DNA of 64,000 bases from an uncultured Methanosarcinales archaeon (GCA_964510025.1 CAZDZV010000006.1:11143-75142), one strand, 5' to 3'; shown: positions 10,812-58,977, counted from the stretch's first letter. Notes: generated by a model not told the origin, from the letters alone. Made by a program: numbers and translations.

Positions 10812-11262
10812 CTTTTATTCTTCTTGTTTTGGGGACATAGTTCAGCAGTTTATCTCCCGCAATCTTGCCGCACCCTAGGAAGTCATCCTTGTTTCTAACC
10901 AGCACGAATCCTGTCAGGCTGCCTTTATATTCCAGGTCATAGCCTTTGAGCCATTCTCGGGACTTTTTCTCATCCAGTTCAAGAATATTTTTGCATGCGC
11001 ATGGGCCTATGAGCTGGCTTCCTTCTATGCTAAGCCTTACCTGATCTTCTCTAAGTTCTGCGATATATAGTCCATAAGAATTTACTCTTAGTTTAGACAG
11101 ATCAATTTTTTTTACGTCCTCATTCACGATATATATCTTGTCCTTCTGGCTCAGCAGGAAGACATAATCAAGATCCTCCTCGAAGCCAAATTGCCTCCTG
11201 AATATCCCTAGAATGCCCTGTTTTTCCTTGTTGTTGAGTATCTTAAGCTTCATATTCCCCAT
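10801..11262 (-). CDS. Nip7-like ribosome-biogenesis protein with C-terminal PUA-like domain
   Basis: 153 aa. YGLYIAELREDQVRLSIEGSQLIG ... GFVLVRNKDDFLGCGK pattern. Overlaps the aIF5B stop, so it is probably co-transcribed. Confidence 0.55.
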   Translation of the reverse strand: MGNMKLKILNNKEKQGILGIFRRQFGFEEDLDYVFLLSQKDKIYIVNEDVKKIDLSKLRVNSYGLYIAELREDQVRLSIEGSQLIGPCACKNILELDEKKSREWLKGYDLEYKGSLTGFVLVRNKDDFLGCGKIAGDKLLNYVPKTRRIKASD

Positions 11263-13007
11263 ACAGGATTGTTCTTTCTCTTCATCTGCGAGATTTCCTT
11301 CAGCAGCTCGATCTCTTCCTTGGACAAGTACTGCTTCAGCTCCTTCATCTTTCTGAAATCGTCTTCAGGTATGTCTGAATAGAGGATATCCCCCTCATTG
11401 ATCTGCCTTCCTACTGTAACTCCGTCCACAGATATGGCTATCTGCTGGTTCCTCTCTGCCACCCTTATGTTTTCCTGGTCTTTCTGCATGGCTTTTATCT
11501 CTCCGATGGTCCGCCCGTCCTCTTTCATTATGGGGGTGCCTATTCTAAGCTTGCCCGCTATGATATCTACCCCGCATATTGCTGGGTTGGACTGTCTGAA
11601 TACATAGCCTTTCATCAGCTGTAGCTTGGCAGGCCTTACCAGCTCATCAAGCTGTCCGGCCTCTAATCTTGTCTTTTCTTGCTGCTGCCATTTTTCTAGA
11701 TCTTCGATAAGCTTGTAGATTACGTCATTTGTGATTACCTTTACATTCTCCTTGCATATTCCTGAACTGTCTTCGACATTAAAGCCGAGCACGACAGAAT
11801 ACAGCGGATTTGACTCATAATTCGCCTCAGCATCTGCAAGCTCTTTTTTCTTAATAGTGCCGATGGTGGCCTTTTTTATCGGAACATCTTTGTCCCTTAG
11901 CAGTTTTATCAGCGCTTCCAGGGATCCCAGAGTATCTGCCTTGATGACAACCCCTTCCTTGTCTGTTTCAATGACAACCTCCTCAATTTCTTTTTGGACC
12001 TCCTCTTTTGCTTTATCTATGTTATCCGAAGCAGCTCTTATCGGCATTCCGGCTACTACAGCCTCCACACCAGGCGCAATTATCCTTACACCTGTAGCAG
12101 CGACCACCTCCTTCACAGGCTTGAACCTGCTTTTCCTGTCCCTCATCTCAGCCAGTGCTGCTGGCTCAAAAAGCCCCCTTACCTTGGTCACTATAGGTTC
12201 ACCCAGCGACCCGATAACGATAGTATCGTTCTTCTTCAGCGTTCCATCGTAGATTATGACATCCAGACAGGTGCCAAGCCCTTTCTGCTCTTTTACTTCC
12301 ATTATAGTGCCTTTTGCTTTGCCGCTGACATCGCACTTAAGGCAGCTCTCCAGAAATTTCTGTGCCAGTCCTGTGAGGACCATCAGAAGCTCAGCTATAC
12401 CTTCGCCTGTGTGCGCTGATGTAGGCACTATGGCTATCTGCTTGGTATAGTCATCAATCCTATCAAACCTTTCTGAGTTGAATCCAAGCTCAGATAATTT
12501 CCCCACAAGAGTGTAGATCTTGTTGTCCAGCTGCTGACGCACAGACTCTGCCTGGCTGCCTATGTTTTCAATCAAAAAATCCTTTTTTTTCTGCCAACCC
12601 GAAACAAGGTCAATCTTGTTCGCGGCGATGACAAAGGGGGTCTTATAGTTCTTCAATATCTCAATGGATTCCATTGTCTGGGGCTTGACGCCTTCATTGA
12701 TATCTACAACTAAGATAGCAATATCTGCCAGATTTCCCCCTCTTTTTCGAAGATTTGTAAAAGCTGCATGCCCCGGCGTATCGATAAACAGCAATCCCGG
12801 GATAGTAAGCTCCATCTTTAGCGAGGTCAGCAGTTTTCCGCAGATCTTTCTTATAACGTCCAAAGGGATTATGGAAGCGCCAATAGCCTGTGTGATTGCT
12901 CCTGCCTCTGCTTTTACAATAGCTGTCCCCCTGATCTGATCAAGGATGCTTGATTTTCCGTTGTCTACATGGCCCAATGTGGTGCATATTAAGCTTCTTG
13001 TTACCAT
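11250..13007 (-). CDS. infB: translation initiation factor aIF5B
   Basis: 585 aa. GTPase motifs GHVDNGKSS (G1), DTPGH (G3) and NKID (G4), with colinear domain II-IV length typical of aIF5B. Confidence 0.9.
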   Translation of the reverse strand: MVTRSLICTTLGHVDNGKSSILDQIRGTAIVKAEAGAITQAIGASIIPLDVIRKICGKLLTSLKMELTIPGLLFIDTPGHAAFTNLRKRGGNLADIAILVVDINEGVKPQTMESIEILKNYKTPFVIAANKIDLVSGWQKKKDFLIENIGSQAESVRQQLDNKIYTLVGKLSELGFNSERFDRIDDYTKQIAIVPTSAHTGEGIAELLMVLTGLAQKFLESCLKCDVSGKAKGTIMEVKEQKGLGTCLDVIIYDGTLKKNDTIVIGSLGEPIVTKVRGLFEPAALAEMRDRKSRFKPVKEVVAATGVRIIAPGVEAVVAGMPIRAASDNIDKAKEEVQKEIEEVVIETDKEGVVIKADTLGSLEALIKLLRDKDVPIKKATIGTIKKKELADAEANYESNPLYSVVLGFNVEDSSGICKENVKVITNDVIYKLIEDLEKWQQQEKTRLEAGQLDELVRPAKLQLMKGYVFRQSNPAICGVDIIAGKLRIGTPIMKEDGRTIGEIKAMQKDQENIRVAERNQQIAISVDGVTVGRQINEGDILYSDIPEDDFRKMKELKQYLSKEEIELLKEISQMKRKNNPVWGI

Positions 13008-34034: not shown

Positions 34035-35155
34035 CTTTCATAGTCAGCCACCCGATCCAGTATTTCTCTCCGCTATTTAGATTACTATCGAAAAAAATGG
34101 ACCTTACGGTCATTTATCTATCAGATGAAACATTGAAGACTTTCATGGATAAAGAATTTTCAGCAGCGATTAAGTGGGATATTCCTTTGTTAAAAGGGTA
34201 TAGGTACAAATTACTAAAAAATAATTCACCTGTCCATTCTGTTTCCAGGCCACCTTTTGGTTTATTAAATCTTGGGATTCTAAATGAGATAACCAATAAA
34301 AAATATGATTGCATAATAGTCCATGGGTGGCATTATGTAAGCCATTGGTTAGTCTACATCCTATGTATCCTTAGGCAGCTGCCTTTCTATATTAGGTCTG
34401 AATCTCCCCTAAACCAGGAAAAAACAAAGCCTGATTGGAAGATTTACATCAAAAAAATTTTACTTGGATATTTATTTCGTAGGGCAGCTGGTCTTCTGGC
34501 GATTGGAACTCAAAACAGGAGATTCTATGGGTTCTATGGGGTAGAAAATAAAAAAATCTTTTATGCACCTTATTCTGTCGATAATGATAGGCTTATGCCA
34601 AAAAAACGTAAAACTAAAAAAGACAAAATAGTAATCTTGTTTGTTGGGAAGCTTATAGAGAAAAAAAGGCCTATGGATCTGTTGCAGGCCTTTGAAAGGA
34701 TAAGTTATGAAACAAAAGCCCTGTATTTTGTAGGCGAAGGAAAAATGAAGAGACAGCTGCAAAAATATACGAAAAAAAATCATCTAAAAAACGTATTTTT
34801 CCCTGGATTTGTAAATCAGACAGCCCTCCCAGACTATTATAATATGGCGGATATATTTGTGCTTCCGTCTGGAATAGGAGAAACCTGGGGGCTGGTAGTA
34901 AACGAAGCAATGTGTTTTGGCCTCCCAGTTATAGTATCGGATATTTCAGGATGCAGCACAGATTTGGTAAAACAAGGCAAAAATGGCTACATATTTAAAA
35001 CAGGAGATATAGGACAATTGTCACGATATTTGAACATGCTTATAAAAAATAAGAAACTAAGAAACCAGATGGGATCTAGGTCTCTCAAAATCATAGGTCA
35101 ATTTAGCTGCAAAGCAGCAGCCGAAGGGATTGCTAAGGCTGTCAAGAGAAAATGA
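34022..35155 (+). CDS. GT4 glycosyltransferase
   Basis: FVLPSGIGETWGLVVNEAMCFGLPVIVSDISG. Confidence 0.8.
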   Translation: MDKVAFIVSHPIQYFSPLFRLLSKKMDLTVIYLSDETLKTFMDKEFSAAIKWDIPLLKGYRYKLLKNNSPVHSVSRPPFGLLNLGILNEITNKKYDCIIVHGWHYVSHWLVYILCILRQLPFYIRSESPLNQEKTKPDWKIYIKKILLGYLFRRAAGLLAIGTQNRRFYGFYGVENKKIFYAPYSVDNDRLMPKKRKTKKDKIVILFVGKLIEKKRPMDLLQAFERISYETKALYFVGEGKMKRQLQKYTKKNHLKNVFFPGFVNQTALPDYYNMADIFVLPSGIGETWGLVVNEAMCFGLPVIVSDISGCSTDLVKQGKNGYIFKTGDIGQLSRYLNMLIKNKKLRNQMGSRSLKIIGQFSCKAAAEGIAKAVKRK

Positions 35156-36963
35156 AGCCATTTTTAAAAATAAGGAAAATTTTAGGACTTTTCAGAAAAC
35201 TCGAAATCCGCTTAGTTTACTTTGCGATCCCTATAGTTCTTTCGTTTCTAATAGCATTTTTTGAAGGCCTAAGCATCGGACTGCTAATACCCTTGGCTAA
35301 AGGGATTGTGGAGATGGAATTCAGTTTTGTGAGAAACCTTCCTTTTTTTAAGACAATCAATGACCTTTTCCCCCAGTTGCTAGCGCATAATAGGGCGATC
35401 TTTGTGACTCTTGTACTGATCATATTCATCTCAGCAGTCTTAAAAAATGTCTTCACCTATCTATCTTCCGTCATAGTAAGATATCAAATACGGCAAGCTG
35501 CGCATAAAGCAAGAAAGCACATATTCAATAGATATCTAAGTTTTGGCAAGCTTTTTTATGACAGGAATAATGAGGGCCATCTGCAAAGCATACTGCTCAG
35601 CTATACAAACTCGATCATAGGTCAGCTAGGCTCTATCTCCCACCTCATGAACGGCTCCGCTATGCTTCTTGTGTATTTTATTATGATGTTTTCCATATCC
35701 TGGAGATTGACTGTATTCATTCTGCTGATATTTCCGGTCCTGAACCTATCACTGAAATATCTGATTGCGAAGATAAAGAAAACCTCAAAGTTCTCGGCAG
35801 ATGCTAGGAAGAGGATGAACAGGGCAGTCTTCAACGTGCTTTCGTCTATACCGATTATAAAGGCATATACGAAAGAGGAGGAGGAAAAGAAGAACTTTGA
35901 CAAAATGAGCGAAGAAATGTCAAAATGGGACTTCAGTATGGATAAAAAATACGACCTGATAGGGCCAATGCAGGAAGTTATAACCTTGATAGCAGTACTG
36001 TTGGTAATCTCAGCCATGGCCTTCTTGTTTATAAAAACTAAGACAGGTGATATCTACGGGTTTGCCGTATTTTTTTATCTGTTGAAGAAATCCATGGGCA
36101 CGTTTGGTATCTTTAACAGCTTCAAGGGATCATTGGCAAAAGCCTCCGGACAGGTGCAAGAAATAATGCATATTCTCAGTGAGAAGAATAAGCATTATGT
36201 AAAAGGAGGAAGAAAAGAATTCAATGGATTGGAATCAGAGATTAAGCTGAGTAGGCTAAGCTTCCATTATGACTCAAAAGTTCCCATAATCAAGGACATA
36301 TCCTTCTCTATCAGAAAAGGAAAGATGACGGCTATTGTAGGGCCAACTGGCTCAGGTAAGACAACAATAATCAATCTTCTTCTGAGATTTTATGAATGCC
36401 CTGAAGGTTCTATATTTGTAGATGGGCGGGATATCAAGGAGTTCACGTTAAAATCGATAAGAAAGCATATGGCCCTTGTCAGCCAGGATACTATGCTTTT
36501 CAATGATACATTGAGAAAAAATATGACCTACGGAATAGACAGACAGGTGTCTCAGCAGGAGTTGGCTAGGATAGCAAAAAAGGCCCGGATCTATGACTAC
36601 ATCAAGAAGCTTCCGCGTGGCTTTGAAACGGTTATAGGTGATAGGGGAGTGCAGCTTTCTGGAGGTGAAAAGCAGAGGATATCGATTGCAAGAGCCCTCT
36701 TGAAGAACGCCGATATATTGATACTAGATGAAGCCACAAGCTCCCTGGACTCCAGAACAGAAAAGCTCATTCAGGAAGCTATCTACGAAGCTGTGAAGGG
36801 GAGAACCTCTATAGTCATCGCACACCGGCTTTCGACTATAAAGAACGCTGACAAGATTATCATCATTGAGAAAGGCAAGATAATTGAAAAAGGAAAACCC
36901 AAGGAACTGCTTGGAAAAAAAGGCAGATTCTATCAATATTGGCAGGAGCAGAAGTTTGAATAA
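35152..36963 (+). CDS. ABC exporter, fused permease/ATPase (MsbA-type)
   Basis: 603 aa with six N-terminal TM helices. Walker A GPTGSGKTT, signature LSGGEKQRISIARAL, Walker B ILILDEATSSLD and H-loop IVIAHRLST. Confidence 0.9.
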   Translation: MKPFLKIRKILGLFRKLEIRLVYFAIPIVLSFLIAFFEGLSIGLLIPLAKGIVEMEFSFVRNLPFFKTINDLFPQLLAHNRAIFVTLVLIIFISAVLKNVFTYLSSVIVRYQIRQAAHKARKHIFNRYLSFGKLFYDRNNEGHLQSILLSYTNSIIGQLGSISHLMNGSAMLLVYFIMMFSISWRLTVFILLIFPVLNLSLKYLIAKIKKTSKFSADARKRMNRAVFNVLSSIPIIKAYTKEEEEKKNFDKMSEEMSKWDFSMDKKYDLIGPMQEVITLIAVLLVISAMAFLFIKTKTGDIYGFAVFFYLLKKSMGTFGIFNSFKGSLAKASGQVQEIMHILSEKNKHYVKGGRKEFNGLESEIKLSRLSFHYDSKVPIIKDISFSIRKGKMTAIVGPTGSGKTTIINLLLRFYECPEGSIFVDGRDIKEFTLKSIRKHMALVSQDTMLFNDTLRKNMTYGIDRQVSQQELARIAKKARIYDYIKKLPRGFETVIGDRGVQLSGGEKQRISIARALLKNADILILDEATSSLDSRTEKLIQEAIYEAVKGRTSIVIAHRLSTIKNADKIIIIEKGKIIEKGKPKELLGKKGRFYQYWQEQKFE

Positions 36964-51813: not shown

Positions 51814-52036
51814 TTTTAAGTGATGACTGCCCTACAAACCTAGAATTCTGCAATTTTAGGCTTTAATGCGTCTTTCATGCAAGACATGAATAACGACTCT
51901 GTGCTTCTCTTTGATCGGCCCACATCGGCTTTCTATTTTCATTGAGCCCATTTTATTTATATATAGGCAAGATAATGCTTTGATAATATATAAAAGCTGT
52001 GTTTATTTTGGGGAATTTGTGAGTCGACAAATCCCT

Positions 52037-52966
52037 CTAAATTATGATGTCTTTTAGGATTCCTTGTTTTACTAATTCGATATTTATCAAGTAATCATTA
52101 TGCAGAAAAGTTTCAAATAATGATTTCTTTGTTGTTTTCCATCCAAGACCATCGGTAATCCAAATTAAGTCGATTCCTTGTTTTCTTAAGAAGTCTGATA
52201 AGTACTGATATTCACCAGCTGTTGACTTTAATTTTGACCCACCGCCACTATAATAATTGGTTTCAATTACAAAAATCTTATTTTTTGATTTCTCAAATAC
52301 TGCAAAATCAAATATTCGATTGGTTTTATCAAGTTCAATATCAAAATTCCATTTCTCCTTGATCTTTTTTTGTGTTGCTTGCGGAATGTAGTCCAAGTTA
52401 TTTTTCTCTGAGAATTTCAGTATTATCTTCTCAACAATGCTCTCCATTGATTGACCTGTACGGTTTTTTCTTGCATTTGTATCCATTCCTACTTCGACAC
52501 CAAAGCAATAGTCAACAATATTCTTAACATTTTTATCTTTGAATATACTTTTTAATCCCGATTCCTTAAAGAAAATTAGTATGTCTTCTCTTATATCTGA
52601 AGTAAGCTCAACATCAGGATTAAATAATTCCAGTTTACTACCAGACTTTAGCTCTTCAAAATCATCAATGATGTTTACTGCCTTTAATTTGCTTTTTCTG
52701 ATAGCAATGAGAATTGGAAGAACCTTTCTTACATTTGGATATTCAGTAATAAGTTCAATGAATTCTTTTTCTATATCGCTTTTTCCAATTAACACATTAA
52801 GAAGATTTAGCTCTTTTTCAATTAAGTGAGTGTTATTCTTAACTTTCTCAAAATCAACAAAATAATCCCATGTAAATATGGAATCTGTCAAAGTTTGTAC
52901 AAGATAGTCAAATATCCCTTTCTCATCTTTTAGGTTTAATTTTTCATATGTTTGTAAGTATTTCAT
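52037..52966 (-). CDS. type II restriction endonuclease, DpnII/MboI family (GATC)
   Basis: 309 aa. FTWDYFVDFEKVKNN...ELNLLNVLIGK matches the DpnII-family N-terminus as I recall it. ggtga SD. Last gene of the methylase operon. Confidence 0.7.
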   Translation of the reverse strand: MKYLQTYEKLNLKDEKGIFDYLVQTLTDSIFTWDYFVDFEKVKNNTHLIEKELNLLNVLIGKSDIEKEFIELITEYPNVRKVLPILIAIRKSKLKAVNIIDDFEELKSGSKLELFNPDVELTSDIREDILIFFKESGLKSIFKDKNVKNIVDYCFGVEVGMDTNARKNRTGQSMESIVEKIILKFSEKNNLDYIPQATQKKIKEKWNFDIELDKTNRIFDFAVFEKSKNKIFVIETNYYSGGGSKLKSTAGEYQYLSDFLRKQGIDLIWITDGLGWKTTKKSLFETFLHNDYLINIELVKQGILKDIII

Positions 52967-52975
52967 TTCTTCACC

Positions 52976-53809
52976 TTAATAGTTTGTAACGACAACTTCA
53001 TTTATCTTTCCCCTTTTGTCCCCATTACAATTGATCATTCTTGTTGCCTGAACAAAATGGATTTCATAATTAGGATATAATTCTTTAATAAATTTTGTAT
53101 CGCTATTGCTTAACATCACAAGGCAACCATTATCATCCAGTTTTTTGAATACTTCAGCAAGCTGTTTCTGCTCTTCTTCTAAAAATGTGTCTTTTGTGTA
53201 GGTTGTAAAACTCTTTCCTTTTTTAAGTGGATAATAAGGAGGATCAAAATAAATAAAGTCTCCTTTATTTGCTAGATTAACAACCTTTTCGAAAGACATT
53301 ACTTTAATCGTAACATTTTTCAATAATTCTGAAACTAGTCTTAATCTATCTTCTTGGACAATATCTGGATTTTTGTAGGAACCCATCGGAACGTTGAATT
53401 TTCCCTTTGAGTTTACTCTATATAGTCCATTGAAGCAAGTCTTATTTAAATAAATGAATCGTGCTGCTCTTTCAAGAGAAGGTAATTCTTTTGGATTTGT
53501 TGCACGAATTGTTAAATAATATTTTTTGCCTTCAACCATATGATATTCCTTATGCTGTTTTAATTCAATTATTAATCTCTCTACATCACCCCTTATGGTT
53601 TCGTAAGCATTGATTAATTCTTCATTTATGTCTGAAATAATAATTTCAGAAGGATTAAACTTTTGAATTATATAGAAGAAAACTGCTCCGCTACCAACAA
53701 AAGGCTCTAAATAGCGATTAAACTTCTTTGGAAATAATGGCTCAAACTGTTCTAAAAGTTGACCTTTACCGCCTGCCCATTTAACAAATTTGGGGATTTG
53801 GATATTCAT
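52976..53809 (-). CDS. dam: Dam-family N6-adenine DNA methyltransferase (GATC; DpnM-like)
   Basis: 277 aa. KWAGGKGQLL, EPFVGSGAVFF (motif I) and FDPPYYP (motif IV). The start overlaps the OLD stop (ATGA). Confidence 0.9.
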   Translation of the reverse strand: MNIQIPKFVKWAGGKGQLLEQFEPLFPKKFNRYLEPFVGSGAVFFYIIQKFNPSEIIISDINEELINAYETIRGDVERLIIELKQHKEYHMVEGKKYYLTIRATNPKELPSLERAARFIYLNKTCFNGLYRVNSKGKFNVPMGSYKNPDIVQEDRLRLVSELLKNVTIKVMSFEKVVNLANKGDFIYFDPPYYPLKKGKSFTTYTKDTFLEEEQKQLAEVFKKLDDNGCLVMLSNSDTKFIKELYPNYEIHFVQATRMINCNGDKRGKINEVVVTNY

Positions 53810-55563
53810 TTTTTATTCTCCACCAATTCAGAAACAAATACTTTTAAATTGTCTGTTACCAAATAACTTTTTTCTAATAATTTTTCACATATCATCTTAC
53901 AAATATACTTTTTCAACCCTTCATCACAGAAATTAATCACTTCTTTATCTGAATTTTTACTTTTTATCTTTTCAGTTGCAAAATTCAAAATTTCACTATT
54001 ATTATATGCCTGATTTGTTCTTTCCTTAAATTCATCATAAGCCATAATAGTATAGTGGTTTCTTTTATCTTTTAAAAATTCATTAATTGTTTCTAAAATT
54101 AATTTTGGTTCAAAAATATCTTCAATCTCAAAATTAGCTACATTATTTTCATAATTATCAAAACGCTTAACATATTTACATTCTACACTAAAACAGTTAT
54201 ATGTTTTTGACTTTATTTGTTGAAATATACTTTTTCCAGCTGTATCAAAATCAAAAAGTGCGATAATTTTTGGCTTAAAAGATAGATTATTGCAAAACAA
54301 TTCTAGAAATTGTAGGTAACCTTTATATTTATCAACCCCTCCTGCAACAAGAATATTAGGTTTGATAATTTTTAGTTGTTCAAATAATGCAAATAAATAA
54401 TCTTTATCTTCCTGTCCTTCCACCAATAGATTGAAAGGCAAGATCTCCCAAGAATCATTCTTAGAAATTCCTAGGTGCTCTTTGACCATGTACACTTTTT
54501 CAATACCTGCAGCATTATTTATTCTTGTATTTACTTCATAGAATTTCTCGTCTTTTTTCCTGATGTATTCTTTTAATTGTATATCTGCTTCTAGCAAAAC
54601 TACTTCTTCCACTTTCTCAAGCCGTATAAAATTTGGAGAATGTGTATTAATAATGGTTTGATATTTTTTTGAAAGTTGAAACAAGATATCACTTACCCTT
54701 TTCTGAAGTGATGGTTGAAGAAATGCTTCTGGCTCGTCAAACCCCCAGATAATCTCTTTTCCAGTTTTATCAGATATATATTCGATTAAAGAGTATAAAA
54801 CAATTCTCTGAATTCCGCTCCCTTTTGTTTCAATTTTGTTTGAATTGCTATCAATCAGAGTAAAATCAATTAAATCAGATAAAACTTCTCGTAAGTTAAT
54901 GTATTTTGGGAATAGAATTTCTGCCCTCCATAATGAATTATCTATCCCATTAATTCCATTTGTATATTTTTTGATATTTTCAGTAAGTTCTTTTTTTATT
55001 TCTACTAATGCCTTTTCAGATTCTTCAATAAAAGTATTCAAATGTTCCATTGGTTTTGTTTTTCTTTTTCTCAGATTATCCAGGGGAGTTAATAATTCAT
55101 TACTAACAAACCTTGCAATCTCTTTAGAAGTGTCAATATTACTAGCTTCGACCATAATAAATTGATATTTATTTAGAACATTTTTACAATCTTTATCGCT
55201 CATTAGGGTTTCTTGTTTACCTTTTACTTTTATTTTGCCCTCTATCGTTAATGATTTGATTCCCTTTTTCTGCTCTTTATATGTTGTAGAAATAGTAATT
55301 CTATCTTGATTTTTATTAACAAATTCAGCTGTGATTTTTGTTCTGAATCCTGCTCCTCTTTTTCCATAGTAGATATGATGAGGAATATCCTCGTTAGCAT
55401 TAAATTTATTTTCGTCTAACGAGAAGAACAAATTTATAGCTCGTAATACATTTGTTTTACCAACATTATTTGAACCACAAATGATTTTATAGTTATCATT
55501 AGAGAAATCAATCTTTAACTTACTTATTGATCTGTAATTACTTATACTTATTTTCTTTAACAT
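53806..55563 (-). CDS. OLD-family nuclease: ABC-type ATPase + C-terminal TOPRIM
   Basis: 585 aa. Walker A GSNNVGKTN, signature-like KGSGIQR, Walker B IIWGFDEPEAFLQP and THSPNF. TOPRIM residues LLVEGQEDKDYL and ALFDFDTAG. Confidence 0.75.
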   Translation of the reverse strand: MLKKISISNYRSISKLKIDFSNDNYKIICGSNNVGKTNVLRAINLFFSLDENKFNANEDIPHHIYYGKRGAGFRTKITAEFVNKNQDRITISTTYKEQKKGIKSLTIEGKIKVKGKQETLMSDKDCKNVLNKYQFIMVEASNIDTSKEIARFVSNELLTPLDNLRKRKTKPMEHLNTFIEESEKALVEIKKELTENIKKYTNGINGIDNSLWRAEILFPKYINLREVLSDLIDFTLIDSNSNKIETKGSGIQRIVLYSLIEYISDKTGKEIIWGFDEPEAFLQPSLQKRVSDILFQLSKKYQTIINTHSPNFIRLEKVEEVVLLEADIQLKEYIRKKDEKFYEVNTRINNAAGIEKVYMVKEHLGISKNDSWEILPFNLLVEGQEDKDYLFALFEQLKIIKPNILVAGGVDKYKGYLQFLELFCNNLSFKPKIIALFDFDTAGKSIFQQIKSKTYNCFSVECKYVKRFDNYENNVANFEIEDIFEPKLILETINEFLKDKRNHYTIMAYDEFKERTNQAYNNSEILNFATEKIKSKNSDKEVINFCDEGLKKYICKMICEKLLEKSYLVTDNLKVFVSELVENKK

Positions 55564-55579
55564 TATTTCCCCAGTATAG

Positions 55580-56365
55580 TCAAATAAGCTTATTCTTTAT
55601 AGAGTTTATCCTTTTTATTGTGGTTTTTAAAAAATTCTCCTCTTTATCAATACCTATAAATTGTCGATTAAGCATACTTGATACAACCCCTGTAGTACCA
55701 GATCCATTAAATGGATCTAGTACAACGGCATTTTCTTTTGTTGAAGATGCGATAATTCTTCTCAATAATTCTATTGGCTTTTGAGTGGGATGCTTTCCAT
55801 GAGTCTTTTCGCTCATTGGAGTTAACGGAATATGCCAAATGCTCCTCATTTGTTTACCTTTTGGAGCAATATTATCATCCCATTCCCTCATTAAATCATA
55901 ATTAAAAACATGAGGAATCTTCCCATCTTTTCTTGCCCATAAAACAGTTTCATGTGCATGAGCAAAATACCTGCAGCTTAAATTTGGTGGTGCATTAGGT
56001 TTAAACCATGCAATTTCATTTAATAATTTGAAATTGAGCTTTTGTAACGCATATCCTACTTGGTATATATTATGCATTGTCCCAGAAATCCAAATAGTAC
56101 CATTATCTTTTAATACCTTACGACATGCATTTATCCATTCATAAGTGAATTTGAAATCTTTGTCTATTCCATTAGATTTATCCCAGTCTGCTTTATTAAC
56201 TGAGACCATTTTACCAGCCCTGCAAGAGATCCCTCCGTTAGATAGGAAATAAGGTGGATCTGCAAAAACCATATCAACAGATTTTTCAGGTAATGTGTTT
56301 AGAATACTAATACAATCATTATGGAAAAGTTGCACAGTTTCAGACTTGTAATAGGGTTTAATCAT
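55580..56365 (-). CDS. beta-class N6/N4 DNA methyltransferase, DpnA (M2.DpnII)-like
   Basis: 261 aa. VDMVFADPPYFLSNGG (motif IV first), PNLSCRYF, HPTQKP, LDPFNGSGTTGVV (motif I). Near-colinear with S. pneumoniae DpnA as I remember it. Confidence 0.85.
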   Translation of the reverse strand: MIKPYYKSETVQLFHNDCISILNTLPEKSVDMVFADPPYFLSNGGISCRAGKMVSVNKADWDKSNGIDKDFKFTYEWINACRKVLKDNGTIWISGTMHNIYQVGYALQKLNFKLLNEIAWFKPNAPPNLSCRYFAHAHETVLWARKDGKIPHVFNYDLMREWDDNIAPKGKQMRSIWHIPLTPMSEKTHGKHPTQKPIELLRRIIASSTKENAVVLDPFNGSGTTGVVSSMLNRQFIGIDKEENFLKTTIKRINSIKNKLI

Positions 56366-56558
56366 TTATAAATCTAATAAAGTCCTTTATTATAAACTTT
56401 GTTATTAAACTTTCGAAATATTACTATTTTCTTTGCAATGAGCCGTCTCATCGCCCCCTCTCTTCGCAGATCCTTCTATATACAATGCAAGCCTTATGTA
56501 TTACATACTCCGAACGTTGCTTATAAACGATGGGAGCCTTAAATTAGGTGGTGATAAA

Positions 56559-57113
56559 ATGACCTTGGAATATAAGCGTGAACCTCTAGAAGAGGATGAA
56601 GTGTTGGCTTTAAGGAGAGCATCTACTTTCTTTGAAGAAGAATTAGTTATAAACTGTCTGTTAGATACTGGCATGAGAGTATCAGAGCTTGCCAACCTAA
56701 GAGAAGAAAATATCTCCTGGCAAAGAAACTGTATCAGCTTGATAGGAAAAGGTAATAAGCGTAGGGTGATCCCAATGAGTAAAAGAGTAAGGCTACTCCT
56801 ATTAGACTGTTTTTCTCACAATAATACCAAATTTCCATTAGCCATGCGAACAATCCAAAAATATGTTAAAATCGTGGCAGACAAGGCAAGGATAAGAAAA
56901 ACTGTAAGCCCTCACGTGCTAAGACACACATTTGCAGTAACCTATCTTCACAGAGGAGGCAATTTAAGGGCATTACAGGCTATTCTAGGGCATAGTTCCA
57001 TAACAACTACTGATATTTACCTCAACTACTCAGGGAAGCGAGTTATTGATGATTTTCAAAGAATATGGAATGAGCCAGATACAAATAACAAGTTATTGAC
57101 GGGGTATTTTTAA
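56559..57113 (+). CDS. tyrosine recombinase, catalytic domain only
   Basis: ATG 56559 follows ggtggtga; the ORF track starts at 56496. TGMRVSEL (Arg), HVLRHTFA (H-x-x-R), LGHSS, TDIYLNY (Tyr). Confidence 0.75.
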   Translation: MTLEYKREPLEEDEVLALRRASTFFEEELVINCLLDTGMRVSELANLREENISWQRNCISLIGKGNKRRVIPMSKRVRLLLLDCFSHNNTKFPLAMRTIQKYVKIVADKARIRKTVSPHVLRHTFAVTYLHRGGNLRALQAILGHSSITTTDIYLNYSGKRVIDDFQRIWNEPDTNNKLLTGYF

Positions 57114-57115
57114 AA

Positions 57116-58162
57116 ATGGCAAAAAACATCTTCTTTTTTATTATTAAGCATGGAGCTTTGCTTGGCATAGCATTTCCATTTATATTATCCATAAAAATAA
57201 GCACATCTCCTTTTGGTTTGGTACATTTAGTGTTAACCCTAATTATTTTGGAATACTATGCTTATTCCATACACCAGTTTTTATTTGATTTTCAGGATAA
57301 AAGAAGAAAGTTAAGAATAAAAAAATTTGAAGAGTCTAAACTGATTGATAAATTCCTAAATGCTAAATTAGATTACTCTAAATCTTCAGAACTATTAGAG
57401 TTAATTTCTATTATAAAGAATACAGAATTCTTGCCAAAATTAAAAGAAATGTATAATCAGAAAATCGAAGAAAAAATGATTTATGCTGAAAGACTACTTG
57501 AGAAATTACAGCACCAAGAAGAAATACAAGAACTTGAGCTGAAGAAAAGTCAACTTAATAACAACATTCAATATCTAATAAAGCAAGAAAAGGAGATGAC
57601 TCAAACAGAAGAAGAAAGGAAGGAAGATCTAAAGGGGGAGATGAATCTTGAAGAAAATAAGGTGTTTGAAGAGTCAGATCTTACTGATGAAAAAGCAAAT
57701 TTTCTTCTGGAAGAAGGATACGAACAAACCAATCAATATTCAATTATGGAAGAAGGAAATATCTCGGTTTATATCAAACCCGTACTTAATCATTCAAAAT
57801 CACATATGTTTTTGGTTTACGAATTAAAGCAGATTTTGGAACATTGGTATGAAGCTGAAAACATAGAAGAGCATCTAACAAAGGATGCAGACCTTACTTT
57901 CAAGTATAACAAGAAAATCTACGCTCTGGAAGTTGAGACAGGAACATTGCTGAAAAAGAAAGACCAAGCTAGAGATAAAGTAGAATATCTAAATAGGAAA
58001 TATCAAAACAGATGGATGTTCATAGTAACAAATAGAAACCAAGTGGCTAAATACAAGAAATTAGGAATAGTCAGTGAGAGAAAGCAGGTGACAAAAAATC
58101 TTGATAAGATGCTAAAACTCCGCACCCCCCTAGATCGGGTGTCTGAGGAATTTCCCGACTAA
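57116..58162 (+). CDS. unknown: 2 TM helices + coiled coil + C-terminal PD-(D/E)xK-like domain
   Basis: 348 aa, starting 2 nt after the recombinase stop. TM helices GALLGIAFPFILSI and LVHLVLTLIILEYYAY. E/K-rich coiled coil. C-terminal HMFLVYELKQ...KDADLTFKYNKKIYALEVETG. Confidence 0.5.
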   Translation: MAKNIFFFIIKHGALLGIAFPFILSIKISTSPFGLVHLVLTLIILEYYAYSIHQFLFDFQDKRRKLRIKKFEESKLIDKFLNAKLDYSKSSELLELISIIKNTEFLPKLKEMYNQKIEEKMIYAERLLEKLQHQEEIQELELKKSQLNNNIQYLIKQEKEMTQTEEERKEDLKGEMNLEENKVFEESDLTDEKANFLLEEGYEQTNQYSIMEEGNISVYIKPVLNHSKSHMFLVYELKQILEHWYEAENIEEHLTKDADLTFKYNKKIYALEVETGTLLKKKDQARDKVEYLNRKYQNRWMFIVTNRNQVAKYKKLGIVSERKQVTKNLDKMLKLRTPLDRVSEEFPD

Positions 58163-58215
58163 AAAATCACTAAAATAGTCACTTATTCAATCTCCGTATA
58201 ATATCACTTCTTATA

Positions 58216-58977
58216 TTACATAAGGCTATTTTCCAGCTTCTCAATTTTTACAAGCATCTCGTACTTCTCTTTGAATTCTTCCATACTTAACTCTCCCTCC
58301 ACATACTTCATCTTGAGTGCTTCCAATGGTTCAATTGTAGATTCTTTTGTGGATTGCTTCGGCTCTCTCTTCGTACCAAAAGCCATGTTTATCTTGTTTT
58401 GTAAGTCTTTATTTGTAATGTAAGCATAGATTTGGGTAGTATGGATATCAACATGCCCAAGAGATCTCTGAACATAGTAGAGGTCGACTCCTTTTTCTAG
58501 TAGATAGGTTGCATAGGTATGTCTCAATGTATGAAAACTGTAAGCATACCTTTGCTGTCCAAGTTGTGTTTTGAAAGTCTCGATACTAAGCTTAGCTTTC
58601 AGAAGATATTTTCTAAAATGCTTGCTTAAAATGTTGTTAGCAAATGGTCTTCCAGAATAGTTTGAAATAAAATACTCTGATTCATCTGAAAGCCTGAACC
58701 ATTTCTCAATCAATGGTTTGACTTTTTCAGGTAGCATCACTACTCTGTCTTTGCTACCTTTTCCCTGTCTTACAATTACCCTTTCAGCTTCAAGATCAAC
58801 ATCTTGTTTTTTCAGATTGCAGACTTCACTTATACGCAGACCACAAAACAAGGCAATAATACAGCCCATAAATATATTTGCATCATCAATCTGCTCAAAA
58901 AGTGCCATTAATTGCTTTTTATTGAAAACATTAGGTAGTTTTCTTTTTGTATTTGGTCTCCCGAATCTCATCTTCAC
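58216..58977 (-). CDS. tyrosine recombinase/integrase (XerA-like catalytic domain + C-terminal extension)
   Basis: CGLRISEV (Arg), HTLRHTYATYLL, LGHVDIHTTQIYAY (Tyr). The start is GTG 58977 or ATG 58971. Confidence 0.8.
   Translation of the reverse strand: MKMRFGRPNTKRKLPNVFNKKQLMALFEQIDDANIFMGCIIALFCGLRISEVCNLKKQDVDLEAERVIVRQGKGSKDRVVMLPEKVKPLIEKWFRLSDESEYFISNYSGRPFANNILSKHFRKYLLKAKLSIETFKTQLGQQRYAYSFHTLRHTYATYLLEKGVDLYYVQRSLGHVDIHTTQIYAYITNKDLQNKINMAFGTKREPKQSTKESTIEPLEALKMKYVEGELSMEEFKEKYEMLVKIEKLENSLM

Follow-up and report, generated by a model that had tools for sequence, protein, structure and literature searches.

In OLD proteins, a TOPRIM nuclease is coupled to an ABC ATPase, which acts as a sensor or gate (PMC6755086, PMC10568477). 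They have been classified by gene context, with Class 1 encoded by isolated genes, Class 2 found in Gabija, Class 3 in retrons, Class 4 in PARIS and Class 5 in Cran1, and with eleven further clades uncharacterised (PMC12796447). Class 1 genes are defined as isolated genes which are not located near other defence genes (PMC6755086, PMC10568477), and no class embedded in restriction-modification (R-M) operons is listed in the OLD classifications (PMC10568477, PMC12796447). Schiltz et al. assigned 107 of 837 old genes to 'species-specific operons', some of which are defence-related (PMC6755086). The present work concerns an OLD gene located inside an R-M cassette of the DpnII type, on a stretch of archaeal DNA of 64,000 nt (GCA_964510025.1, CAZDZV010000006.1:11143-75142). 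This whole stretch is referred to as the window, and coordinates are counted from its first letter.

Several nucleases with a comparable genetic setting or mode of action have been described. The prrC gene is embedded in the EcoprrI locus and acts as a guardian, with PrrC being masked by the R-M complex and activated by an anti-restriction factor (PMC3710099, PMC12707154). For PARIS, AriA was shown to sense the anti-restriction protein Ocr and to release a TOPRIM tRNase, which aborts the infection (PMC11464382). OLD-ABC/TOPRIM modules were identified inside BREX and BREX-related operons and were read as back-up suicidal effectors (PMC12839542); the same paper cites Krishnan et al. 2020, an ABC ATPase classification, for OLD-ABC conflict systems. 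An OLD-plus-helicase pair, similar to Gabija, is linked to the PluTI type IIF R-M system (PMC2875022). P2 OLD has been reported to be an abortive tRNase, with RecBCD inhibitors and replication intermediates as triggers (bioRxiv 10.64898/2026.07.10.737580), and Vibrio cholerae OLD (VcOLD) is a nickase that defends alone (PMC12392090).

In the window, the cassette consists of four genes on the minus strand, in the order DpnA-like methylase, OLD, Dam-like methylase and DpnII endonuclease:

55580-56365, minus strand: DpnA-like beta-class N6-adenine (N6_N4) DNA methyltransferase, 261 aa (PF01555, 9.1e-61; PADLOC MTase_II PDLC03371, 1.3e-99)
53806-55563, minus strand: OLD-family protein, 585 aa (AAA_15, 1.4e-24; PADLOC 'Old', 4.5e-29, residues 2-446)
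52976-53809, minus strand: Dam-like alpha-class (D12) N6-adenine methyltransferase, 277 aa (PF02086, 7.4e-68; TIGR00571 dam, 9.7e-92)
52037-52966, minus strand: DpnII-family type II restriction endonuclease, 309 aa (PF04556, 3.5e-90, profile positions 2-277 of 278; PADLOC REase_II, 2.5e-92)

A first-pass annotation, made from the sequence, had proposed a DpnII-type cassette with these four open reading frames (ORFs). Its positions, all on the minus strand, match the ORFs exactly, and all three R-M identities are supported by the PF04556, PF02086/TIGR00571 and PF01555 matches. The DpnA-like methylase contains the DPPY and FNGSGTT motifs. By homology, the R-M part is predicted to be specific for GATC. 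The gaps of 16, -4 and 9 nt that had been given for the junctions were all read directly in the sequence. Between the DpnA-like and OLD genes, 16 nt (ctatactggggaaata) separate a TGA stop from the OLD ATG; the stop of OLD and the start of the Dam-like gene share an ATGA, and the TAA of the Dam-like gene is followed by 9 nt (ggtgaagaa) and the DpnII ATG, with ggtga resembling a Shine-Dalgarno sequence. Since the intergenic gaps are too small to contain an internal promoter, co-transcription of the four genes would be the simplest reading. Two elements at the edges of the cassette may be related to its expression:

56396-56386, minus strand: A/T-rich TATA-like element tttataataaa at the upstream cassette edge (56386-56407), with its centre about 27 nt 5' of the DpnA-like ATG
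52011-52035, minus strand: hairpin followed by a T-run, directly 3' of the DpnII stop (RNA fold -9.2 kcal/mol, z -2.1)

The first is a putative archaeal promoter, from which a leaderless or short-leader operon transcript would be produced, and the second is a weak indication of a possible 3' end of this transcript.

The arrangement is not unique to this contig, since the same order was identified in a second locus and further loci combining OLD with R-M genes exist elsewhere. The closest homologue of the OLD protein (P0002, 71% identity) is encoded in locus L080 on a 939-kb JGI contig, where the genes are likewise arranged as DpnA-OLD-Dam-DpnII and adjoin an integrase which is 33-34% identical to the recombinases of the window. 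By blastn, window and L080 share one colinear block from 56407 to 52044 (4391 nt, 78% nucleotide identity), and the flanks of the two cassettes are unrelated. The ends of this block imply that the shared unit spans the region from the putative promoter to the last DpnII codons. The ratio of non-synonymous to synonymous substitution rates (dN/dS) between the two loci is 0.043 for the DpnA-like gene, 0.127 for OLD, 0.060 for the Dam-like gene and 0.032 for DpnII, with dS values of 1.3-2.6, which differ little between the genes and are close to saturation. Purifying selection acts on each of the four genes. The non-synonymous rate of OLD is 2-4 times that of the other cassette genes, and the R-M proteins are 85-88% identical at the amino acid level (88% for the DpnA-like methylase). 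Within OLD (8001-9758 in L080), the putative dimerisation insert at residues 141-245 is the most conserved part with 84% identity, and the C-terminal helical region at residues 471-585 is the least conserved with 54%. From the single colinear block, the common gene order and the purifying selection it follows that the four genes behave as a single inherited, mobile unit. The description of OLD as an integral cistron, not a mere neighbour, is upheld by its tight coupling between the two methylase genes and by the conservation of the block in L080.

The OLD protein has an N-terminal ABC ATPase (about residues 1-330) with a helical insertion (about 145-245), which is followed by a TOPRIM domain (about 375-470) and a helical region (about 480-585). 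In addition to AAA_15, the Pfam profiles AAA_21 and SMC_N are matched, and a weak match to the Toprim-like DUF3226 was found at residues 378-455. In PADLOC, 'Old' was the best defence-model match of the protein. In an alignment of 42 family members, the ATPase residues K36/T37 (Walker A), D276/E277 (Walker B) and H308 are invariant, as is a signature-like KGSGIQ motif; in the C-terminal part E382, D386, D438-x-D440, E481/D482 and K551 are invariant, of which E382, the DxD motif, E481/D482 and K551 would form two metal sites. In the AlphaFold (AF2) model (predicted local distance difference test, pLDDT, 84), E382 ends strand beta1 (377-381) and D438-x-D440 follows beta3 (432-437), which corresponds to the TOPRIM topology. 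The best Foldseek match in the PDB was the Class 1 OLD of Thermus scotoductus (TsOLD, 6p74; 1.4e-18 over 504 aligned columns), followed by GajA and the OLD of retron Eco8, and the ATPase fold also resembles Rad50 heads. When either the protein itself or the profile of its family was searched against PDB sequences, only the ATPase part was aligned, and no significant match of the TOPRIM region to solved OLDs was obtained. The TOPRIM assignment is therefore based on the motifs, the model topology, Foldseek and weak Pfam matches across the family, where OLD-like_TOPRIM was matched by 12, Toprim_2 by 5 and DUF3226 by 19 of the 42 members. The first-pass annotation had recognised an OLD protein with the E and DxD residues of TOPRIM. 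Profiles and fold agree with this and speak against the protein being something other than OLD/TOPRIM, and E382 and D438-x-D440 are present. As judged from sequence and model, the 585-aa protein is an OLD ATPase-TOPRIM protein with intact active-site motifs, for which metal-dependent nuclease and ATPase activities are predicted.

With respect to the OLD classes, no helicase gene, as expected for the Gabija GajA of Class 2, was found in the cassette or in the low-GC island surrounding it, the adjoining genes coding for the methylases and the DpnII endonuclease. No reverse transcriptase, as in the retrons of Class 3, was found among the island ORFs scanned, and ATPase and TOPRIM are fused in a single ORF of 585 aa, in contrast to the split genes of PARIS in Class 4. 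Since neither a helicase nor a reverse transcriptase nor a split TOPRIM gene lies nearby, the context excludes Classes 2, 3 and 4. The architecture of the protein agrees with Class 1, but its gene does not have the isolated context by which this class is defined. Among the uncharacterised clades U1-U11 (PMC12796447), one may correspond to the subfamily.

This subfamily is small and sharply bounded. Among 1.84 billion representative sequences, 76 clusters (50% identity) were found at E<=1e-30 and 301 at E<=1e-10, with full-length relatives at 36-47% identity occurring in many bacterial phyla. From genomes and metagenomes, 160 related loci were fetched, and R-M genes beside OLD were identified by tblastn, using as queries the three R-M proteins of the window and the type I subunits of L081, a locus in which OLD is embedded in a type I operon. 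For the census of contexts, the loci were collapsed at 90% identity, and the 62 clusters having 3 kb or more of sequence on each side were retained; 41 of these are close relatives, with at least 29% identity over at least 450 aa. The following contexts were found:

Inside or beside a DpnII cassette: 12 of 62 clusters, 10 of 41 close relatives
In a type I operon: 10 of 62 clusters, 9 of 41 close relatives
Beside a Dam- or DpnA-like methylase only: 4 of 62 clusters, 3 of 41 close relatives
None of these contexts: 36 of 62 clusters, 19 of 41 close relatives

Thus, 22 of the 41 close relatives are R-M-linked. The gene orders, counted as loci before redundancy removal, were as follows:

Dam-DpnII-OLD-DpnA: 9 loci
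Dam-DpnA-DpnII-OLD: 7 loci
DpnA-DpnII-OLD: 3 loci
DpnA-OLD-Dam-DpnII: 2 loci (the window and L080)
HsdM-(HsdS)-OLD-HsdR: at least 8 loci

OLD commonly overlaps a neighbouring R-M gene by 1-8 nt (for example, in L007, L019, L016, L021, L034 and L036). Among 112 same-strand neighbours, the commonest Pfam families were the DpnA-type methylase, DpnII and D12, followed by type I subunits, with the rest being scattered, and a PADLOC scan of the neighbours added R-M families only. The order shared with L080 and the adjacency of OLD and R-M genes in dozens of independent loci show that the arrangement is more than a chance juxtaposition. The association of OLD with R-M genes is not specific to the layout of the window, since members of the subfamily are also found in type I operons, next to a MutH-type GATC nuclease, and alone. 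The stand-alone members are located between housekeeping genes, for example, ychF/tyrS, groEL or alaS. In the viral contigs searched, no relative of the DpnII endonuclease of the window was identified.

The case with MutH is L011 from a Parcubacteria metagenome-assembled genome (563-3784), where OLD is preceded, in the same direction, by genes for a DpnA-like methylase and a MutH homologue of full length (206 aa). Such a locus has the appearance of a GATC system with a MutH-type nuclease at its core, so that the link to GATC would hold with a different nuclease fold. The spacing of DpnA followed by OLD is the same in L088 and L089. In L081 (3761-12702), the type I operon contains two embedded genes, in the order HsdS-HsdM-SduA_C (Shedu-like)-HsdS-OLD-HsdR, followed by a YgjP-like gene, and is a compact multi-layer defence operon. 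Genes for Mrr-family (type IV, modification-dependent) endonucleases were found in or beside DpnII-OLD cassettes in L007 (5311-6207) and in L032 (1825-2661), in the latter between DpnA and DpnII. In Streptococcus, an overlapping OLD-Dam pair is located directly downstream of valS; together with metagenome loci, 12 such loci were found (among them L067, L068, L070 and L079, and from metagenomes L151, L153, L155, L157, L160 and L161). No DpnII-family gene was detected near these pairs, and downstream of the Streptococcus pair either a Fic gene or a C5 methylase with an unannotated 524-aa protein is present. The 524-aa protein of L070 gave no PDB or Pfam match, and hence no assignment to the Sau3AI type was made. 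The Streptococcus OLD-Dam module may by itself constitute an R-M-like pair.

The relationships within the subfamily were analysed with a rough neighbour-joining tree without support values. In this tree at least six clades of DpnII-linked OLDs were distinguished, which are interleaved with type I-embedded and stand-alone clades, and the OLDs of the window and L080 are sister to the type I-embedded OLD of L081. Each gene order tends to form one clade; in the OLD clade with Dam-DpnII-OLD-DpnA, however, the DpnII genes belong to two lineages that are distant from each other. The distance matrices of OLD and DpnII agree in part (Mantel r 0.42, reached by 0 of 2000 permutations; Spearman 0.11). The picture suggested by these comparisons is that of a module which would have moved between R-M operons and would then have been co-inherited with them, rather than that of an ancient obligate subunit.

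On this basis, the cassette is tentatively regarded as a mobile four-gene unit, in which a catalytically autonomous OLD, repeatedly recruited into R-M operons, would serve as a co-expressed second-line effector; this reading, derived from sequence comparison, is held with slightly less than even confidence. In such a layered defence, the Dam-like and DpnA-like methylases would protect the host DNA, while the DpnII-family endonuclease would cut unmethylated incoming DNA. OLD would be made together with the R-M enzymes and held latent, its ATPase serving both to sense and to gate, as is the case for other OLD proteins, and would fire once restriction fails against an invader. Candidate triggers are the inhibition or evasion of restriction, or replication and recombination intermediates of the invader. 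The TOPRIM site would then cut nucleic acid, either by nicking or degrading DNA or by cleaving tRNA as reported for P2 OLD and PARIS, and the infected cell would be arrested or the invader destroyed. Latency, trigger, substrate and any physical contact of OLD with the R-M proteins are presumed in this scheme.

Several observations weigh against this proposal. About half of the close relatives (19 of 41) stand alone, which implies that OLD needs no R-M partner for its maintenance and argues against an obligate masking of OLD by R-M proteins. To our knowledge, no protein inhibitor of DpnII-type enzymes has been described which a guardian could sense. For 20 plasmids matching the DpnII endonuclease, including the classical Lactococcus plasmid, no close OLD relative was present among the matches listed, and the best plasmid match of OLD has at most 28% identity. 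This indicates that OLD is an optional accessory of DpnII systems and not a core component. Further, the polyphyly, the varied orders of the DpnII cassettes and the partial agreement of the distances fit better to modular shuffling than to an obligate complex.

The main alternative is a simple stacking of defences, where OLD would be an independent single-gene defence similar to Class 1, hitch-hiking with the R-M enzymes without any functional dialogue with them. Compact co-transferred cassettes spread well, and the post-segregational 'addiction' exerted by R-M systems may stabilise an embedded gene. This explanation is a serious possibility, if a minority one. In its favour are the stand-alone relatives (40-47% identity) with their full set of catalytic residues, the occurrence of OLD in three or more types of R-M context and in varied orders with polyphyletic R-M-linked members, the location of the cassette within an integrase-bearing low-GC island, and Class 1 OLDs which can defend alone (VcOLD, PMC12392090; YbjD, PMC13261556). 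However, an independent gene does not account well for the bias towards GATC-type and type I R-M systems over defence genes in general, for the constant slot of OLD in type I operons, for the recurrence of overlapping reading frames, or for the maintenance of the arrangement under purifying selection across near-saturated dS values (1.3-2.6).

In a more novel reading, the subfamily would be a dedicated R-M companion, forming an 'R-M-embedded' class which monitors restriction and fires on its failure. Judged from the sequence data, this is rather unlikely, and the same low expectation attaches to its scope, which would include type I systems as well as GATC type II systems, whether their nuclease has the DpnII or the MutH fold. 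If true, OLD would represent the first guardian described for type II systems of the classical kind and, among defence-type OLDs, the first to be characterised from archaea (DPANN).

It is improbable that OLD is a downstream processor, that is, an ATP-dependent exonuclease or nickase which would act in a RecBCD-like manner on ends made by DpnII or HsdR. Restricted DNA would then be destroyed before repair or recombination, which could matter in the small genomes of DPANN archaea and the Candidate Phyla Radiation (CPR), or, alternatively, accidental self-cuts would be processed for repair. Such a role would be in line with the 5'-3' exonuclease activity of P2 Old and TsOLD on linear DNA in vitro (reviewed in PMC10568477), with the many R-M-linked members from Patescibacteria and DPANN, and with the resemblance of the fold to Rad50/SMC-type end-binding ATPases. 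However, the stand-alone relatives have no adjoining cutter, end recognition by OLD is without support, and other recently studied OLDs act as nickases or tRNases which are set off by infection cues (PMC12392090; bioRxiv 10.64898/2026.07.10.737580). Finally, it is very improbable that OLD forms a pair with the Dam-like methylase as a restriction nuclease guided by methylation, so that two nucleases would read the same GATC mark: the overlapping OLD-Dam modules of the 12 Streptococcus and metagenome loci beside valS without a detected DpnII-family gene, the Dam-OLD (L014) and DpnA-OLD (L062) pairs and the weak matches of OLD to the MADS ATPase MAD3 point in this direction, but the valS-linked OLDs are only 25-28% identical to the window OLD and group in a clade of their own, the OLD model shows no evident domain for reading DNA or sensing methylation, and the same subfamily occurs in type I operons of presumably varied specificity.

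The window is archaeal, with genes for aIF5B, TFS, a CTP-dependent riboflavin kinase and DUF460, and the host of the cassette was assigned from aIF5B. The nearest named aIF5B homologues, with 65-71% identity, are annotated as Nanoarchaeota or Woesearchaeota, and the host is therefore a DPANN archaeon. A second 585-aa ORF of the window (11250-13007) was considered as an OLD paralogue and was rejected, as it codes for aIF5B. In the host DNA (window 1-51900), GATC has an observed/expected ratio (O/E) of 0.65, the second lowest of the 16 palindromic tetramers, and this moderate depletion is at most suggestive, being compatible with a history of GATC restriction. The lowest ratio, 0.53, was found for CGCG. 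On the plus strand, about 25 ORFs of 250-600 aa follow one another in the same direction over 17070-45595, often with overlaps; this long run includes an ABC exporter at 35152-36963 and looks like a large surface-polysaccharide or glycosylation cluster.

The cassette itself is located within a low-GC stretch of about 7.5 kb (about 51.9-59.4 kb), with a GC content of 0.27-0.36 compared to 0.40-0.46 outside. Next to the cassette, this island contains the following genes:

56496-57113, plus strand: tyrosine-recombinase gene, 205 aa (PF00589)
57116-58162, plus strand: unannotated ORF between the recombinase genes, 348 aa
58216-58977, minus strand: tyrosine-recombinase gene, 253 aa (PF00589)

The two recombinases match PF00589 with 6.9e-28 and 1.5e-32, are encoded in opposite orientation and are 29% identical to each other. 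For the 348-aa ORF and two further island ORFs of 135 aa and 181 aa, no match was found in PHROGs, Pfam or NCBIfam, and for the 348-aa ORF also none in PADLOC. By eye, the 348-aa ORF has a hydrophobic N-terminus and a Glu/Lys-rich middle part, and a C-terminal stretch (…DADLTFKYNKKIYALEVETG…K) resembles a PD-(D/E)xK nuclease motif. A 14-nt inverted repeat (56490-56503 and 58214-58227) brackets the first recombinase gene together with the 348-aa ORF; this region could be an invertible or mobile sub-element, or the repeat could be due to chance. No tRNA gene was found in the window, and no convincing direct repeats flank the island.

The first-pass annotation had been unaware of any described system with an OLD nuclease embedded in a type II R-M operon. 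This stands insofar as no paper combining DpnII with OLD was found, though the arrangement may have been depicted earlier in Krishnan et al. 2020 (NAR 48:10045); it does not stand for the concept of an embedded nuclease, which had already been published. Since PrrC, PARIS, the BREX OLD modules and the PluTI-linked pair are in the literature, the novelty is narrower than first supposed. New is the identification of a distinct OLD subfamily which is recurrently embedded in R-M operons, both of the GATC type II and of type I, with the present example coming from a DPANN archaeon. With roughly every second member being R-M-embedded, the subfamily extends the OLD scheme by a further context class. 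The cassette also represents a tractable model for the wiring of first-line restriction to second-line effectors, being compact (4.4 kb), with clear predictions for mutants and with natural variants that contain or lack OLD. It further bears on the organisation of defence in small-genome DPANN archaea and CPR bacteria, which are the hosts of many such loci.

In comparison to the known systems, the R-M part is closest to the DpnII cassette of Streptococcus pneumoniae (dpnM-dpnA-dpnB, with the relatives MboI and LlaDCHI), which codes for the same three protein families in a compact operon. The window differs from it by the order DpnA-OLD-Dam-DpnII in place of the canonical three-gene order, by the fourth gene and by its archaeal (DPANN) host, and the classical plasmid-borne DpnII cassettes are without a close relative of the window OLD among the matches listed. 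The OLD protein shares with the Class 1 OLDs (P2 Old, TsOLD 6P74, V. cholerae OLD and E. coli YbjD) the ABC ATPase and TOPRIM in a single polypeptide, the length of about 585 aa and the absence of a helicase, reverse transcriptase or split partner. In contrast to these, it is encoded by an internal cistron of an R-M operon, with about half of its subfamily being R-M-embedded. The BREX OLD modules and the PluTI-linked pair are likewise OLD-family nucleases in or beside a methylation-based defence operon, whereas the host system in the window is a classical type II DpnII cassette and OLD has no helicase partner. PARIS (AriA/AriB, a Class 4 OLD) also combines an OLD-type ABC ATPase with a TOPRIM nuclease. 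There, however, ATPase and TOPRIM are separate proteins which are not embedded in an R-M operon, and the similarity of the window OLD is limited to the ATPase (AriA model, 3e-27, residues 1-313).

The genetic setting also resembles that of PrrC, the 'RM guardian' of the type Ic locus EcoprrI. There, an ABC-type ATPase fused to a nuclease is encoded inside an R-M operon, and in the window an NTPase-nuclease gene is embedded in the same manner. The prrC gene is located between the specificity/methylase genes and hsdR, in the same slot as the type I-linked OLDs. The nuclease of the window is of the TOPRIM and not of the HEPN type, and its host system is a type II (DpnII) and not a type I system. 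By analogy, a masking and activation similar to that of PrrC might also apply to the OLD protein of the window.

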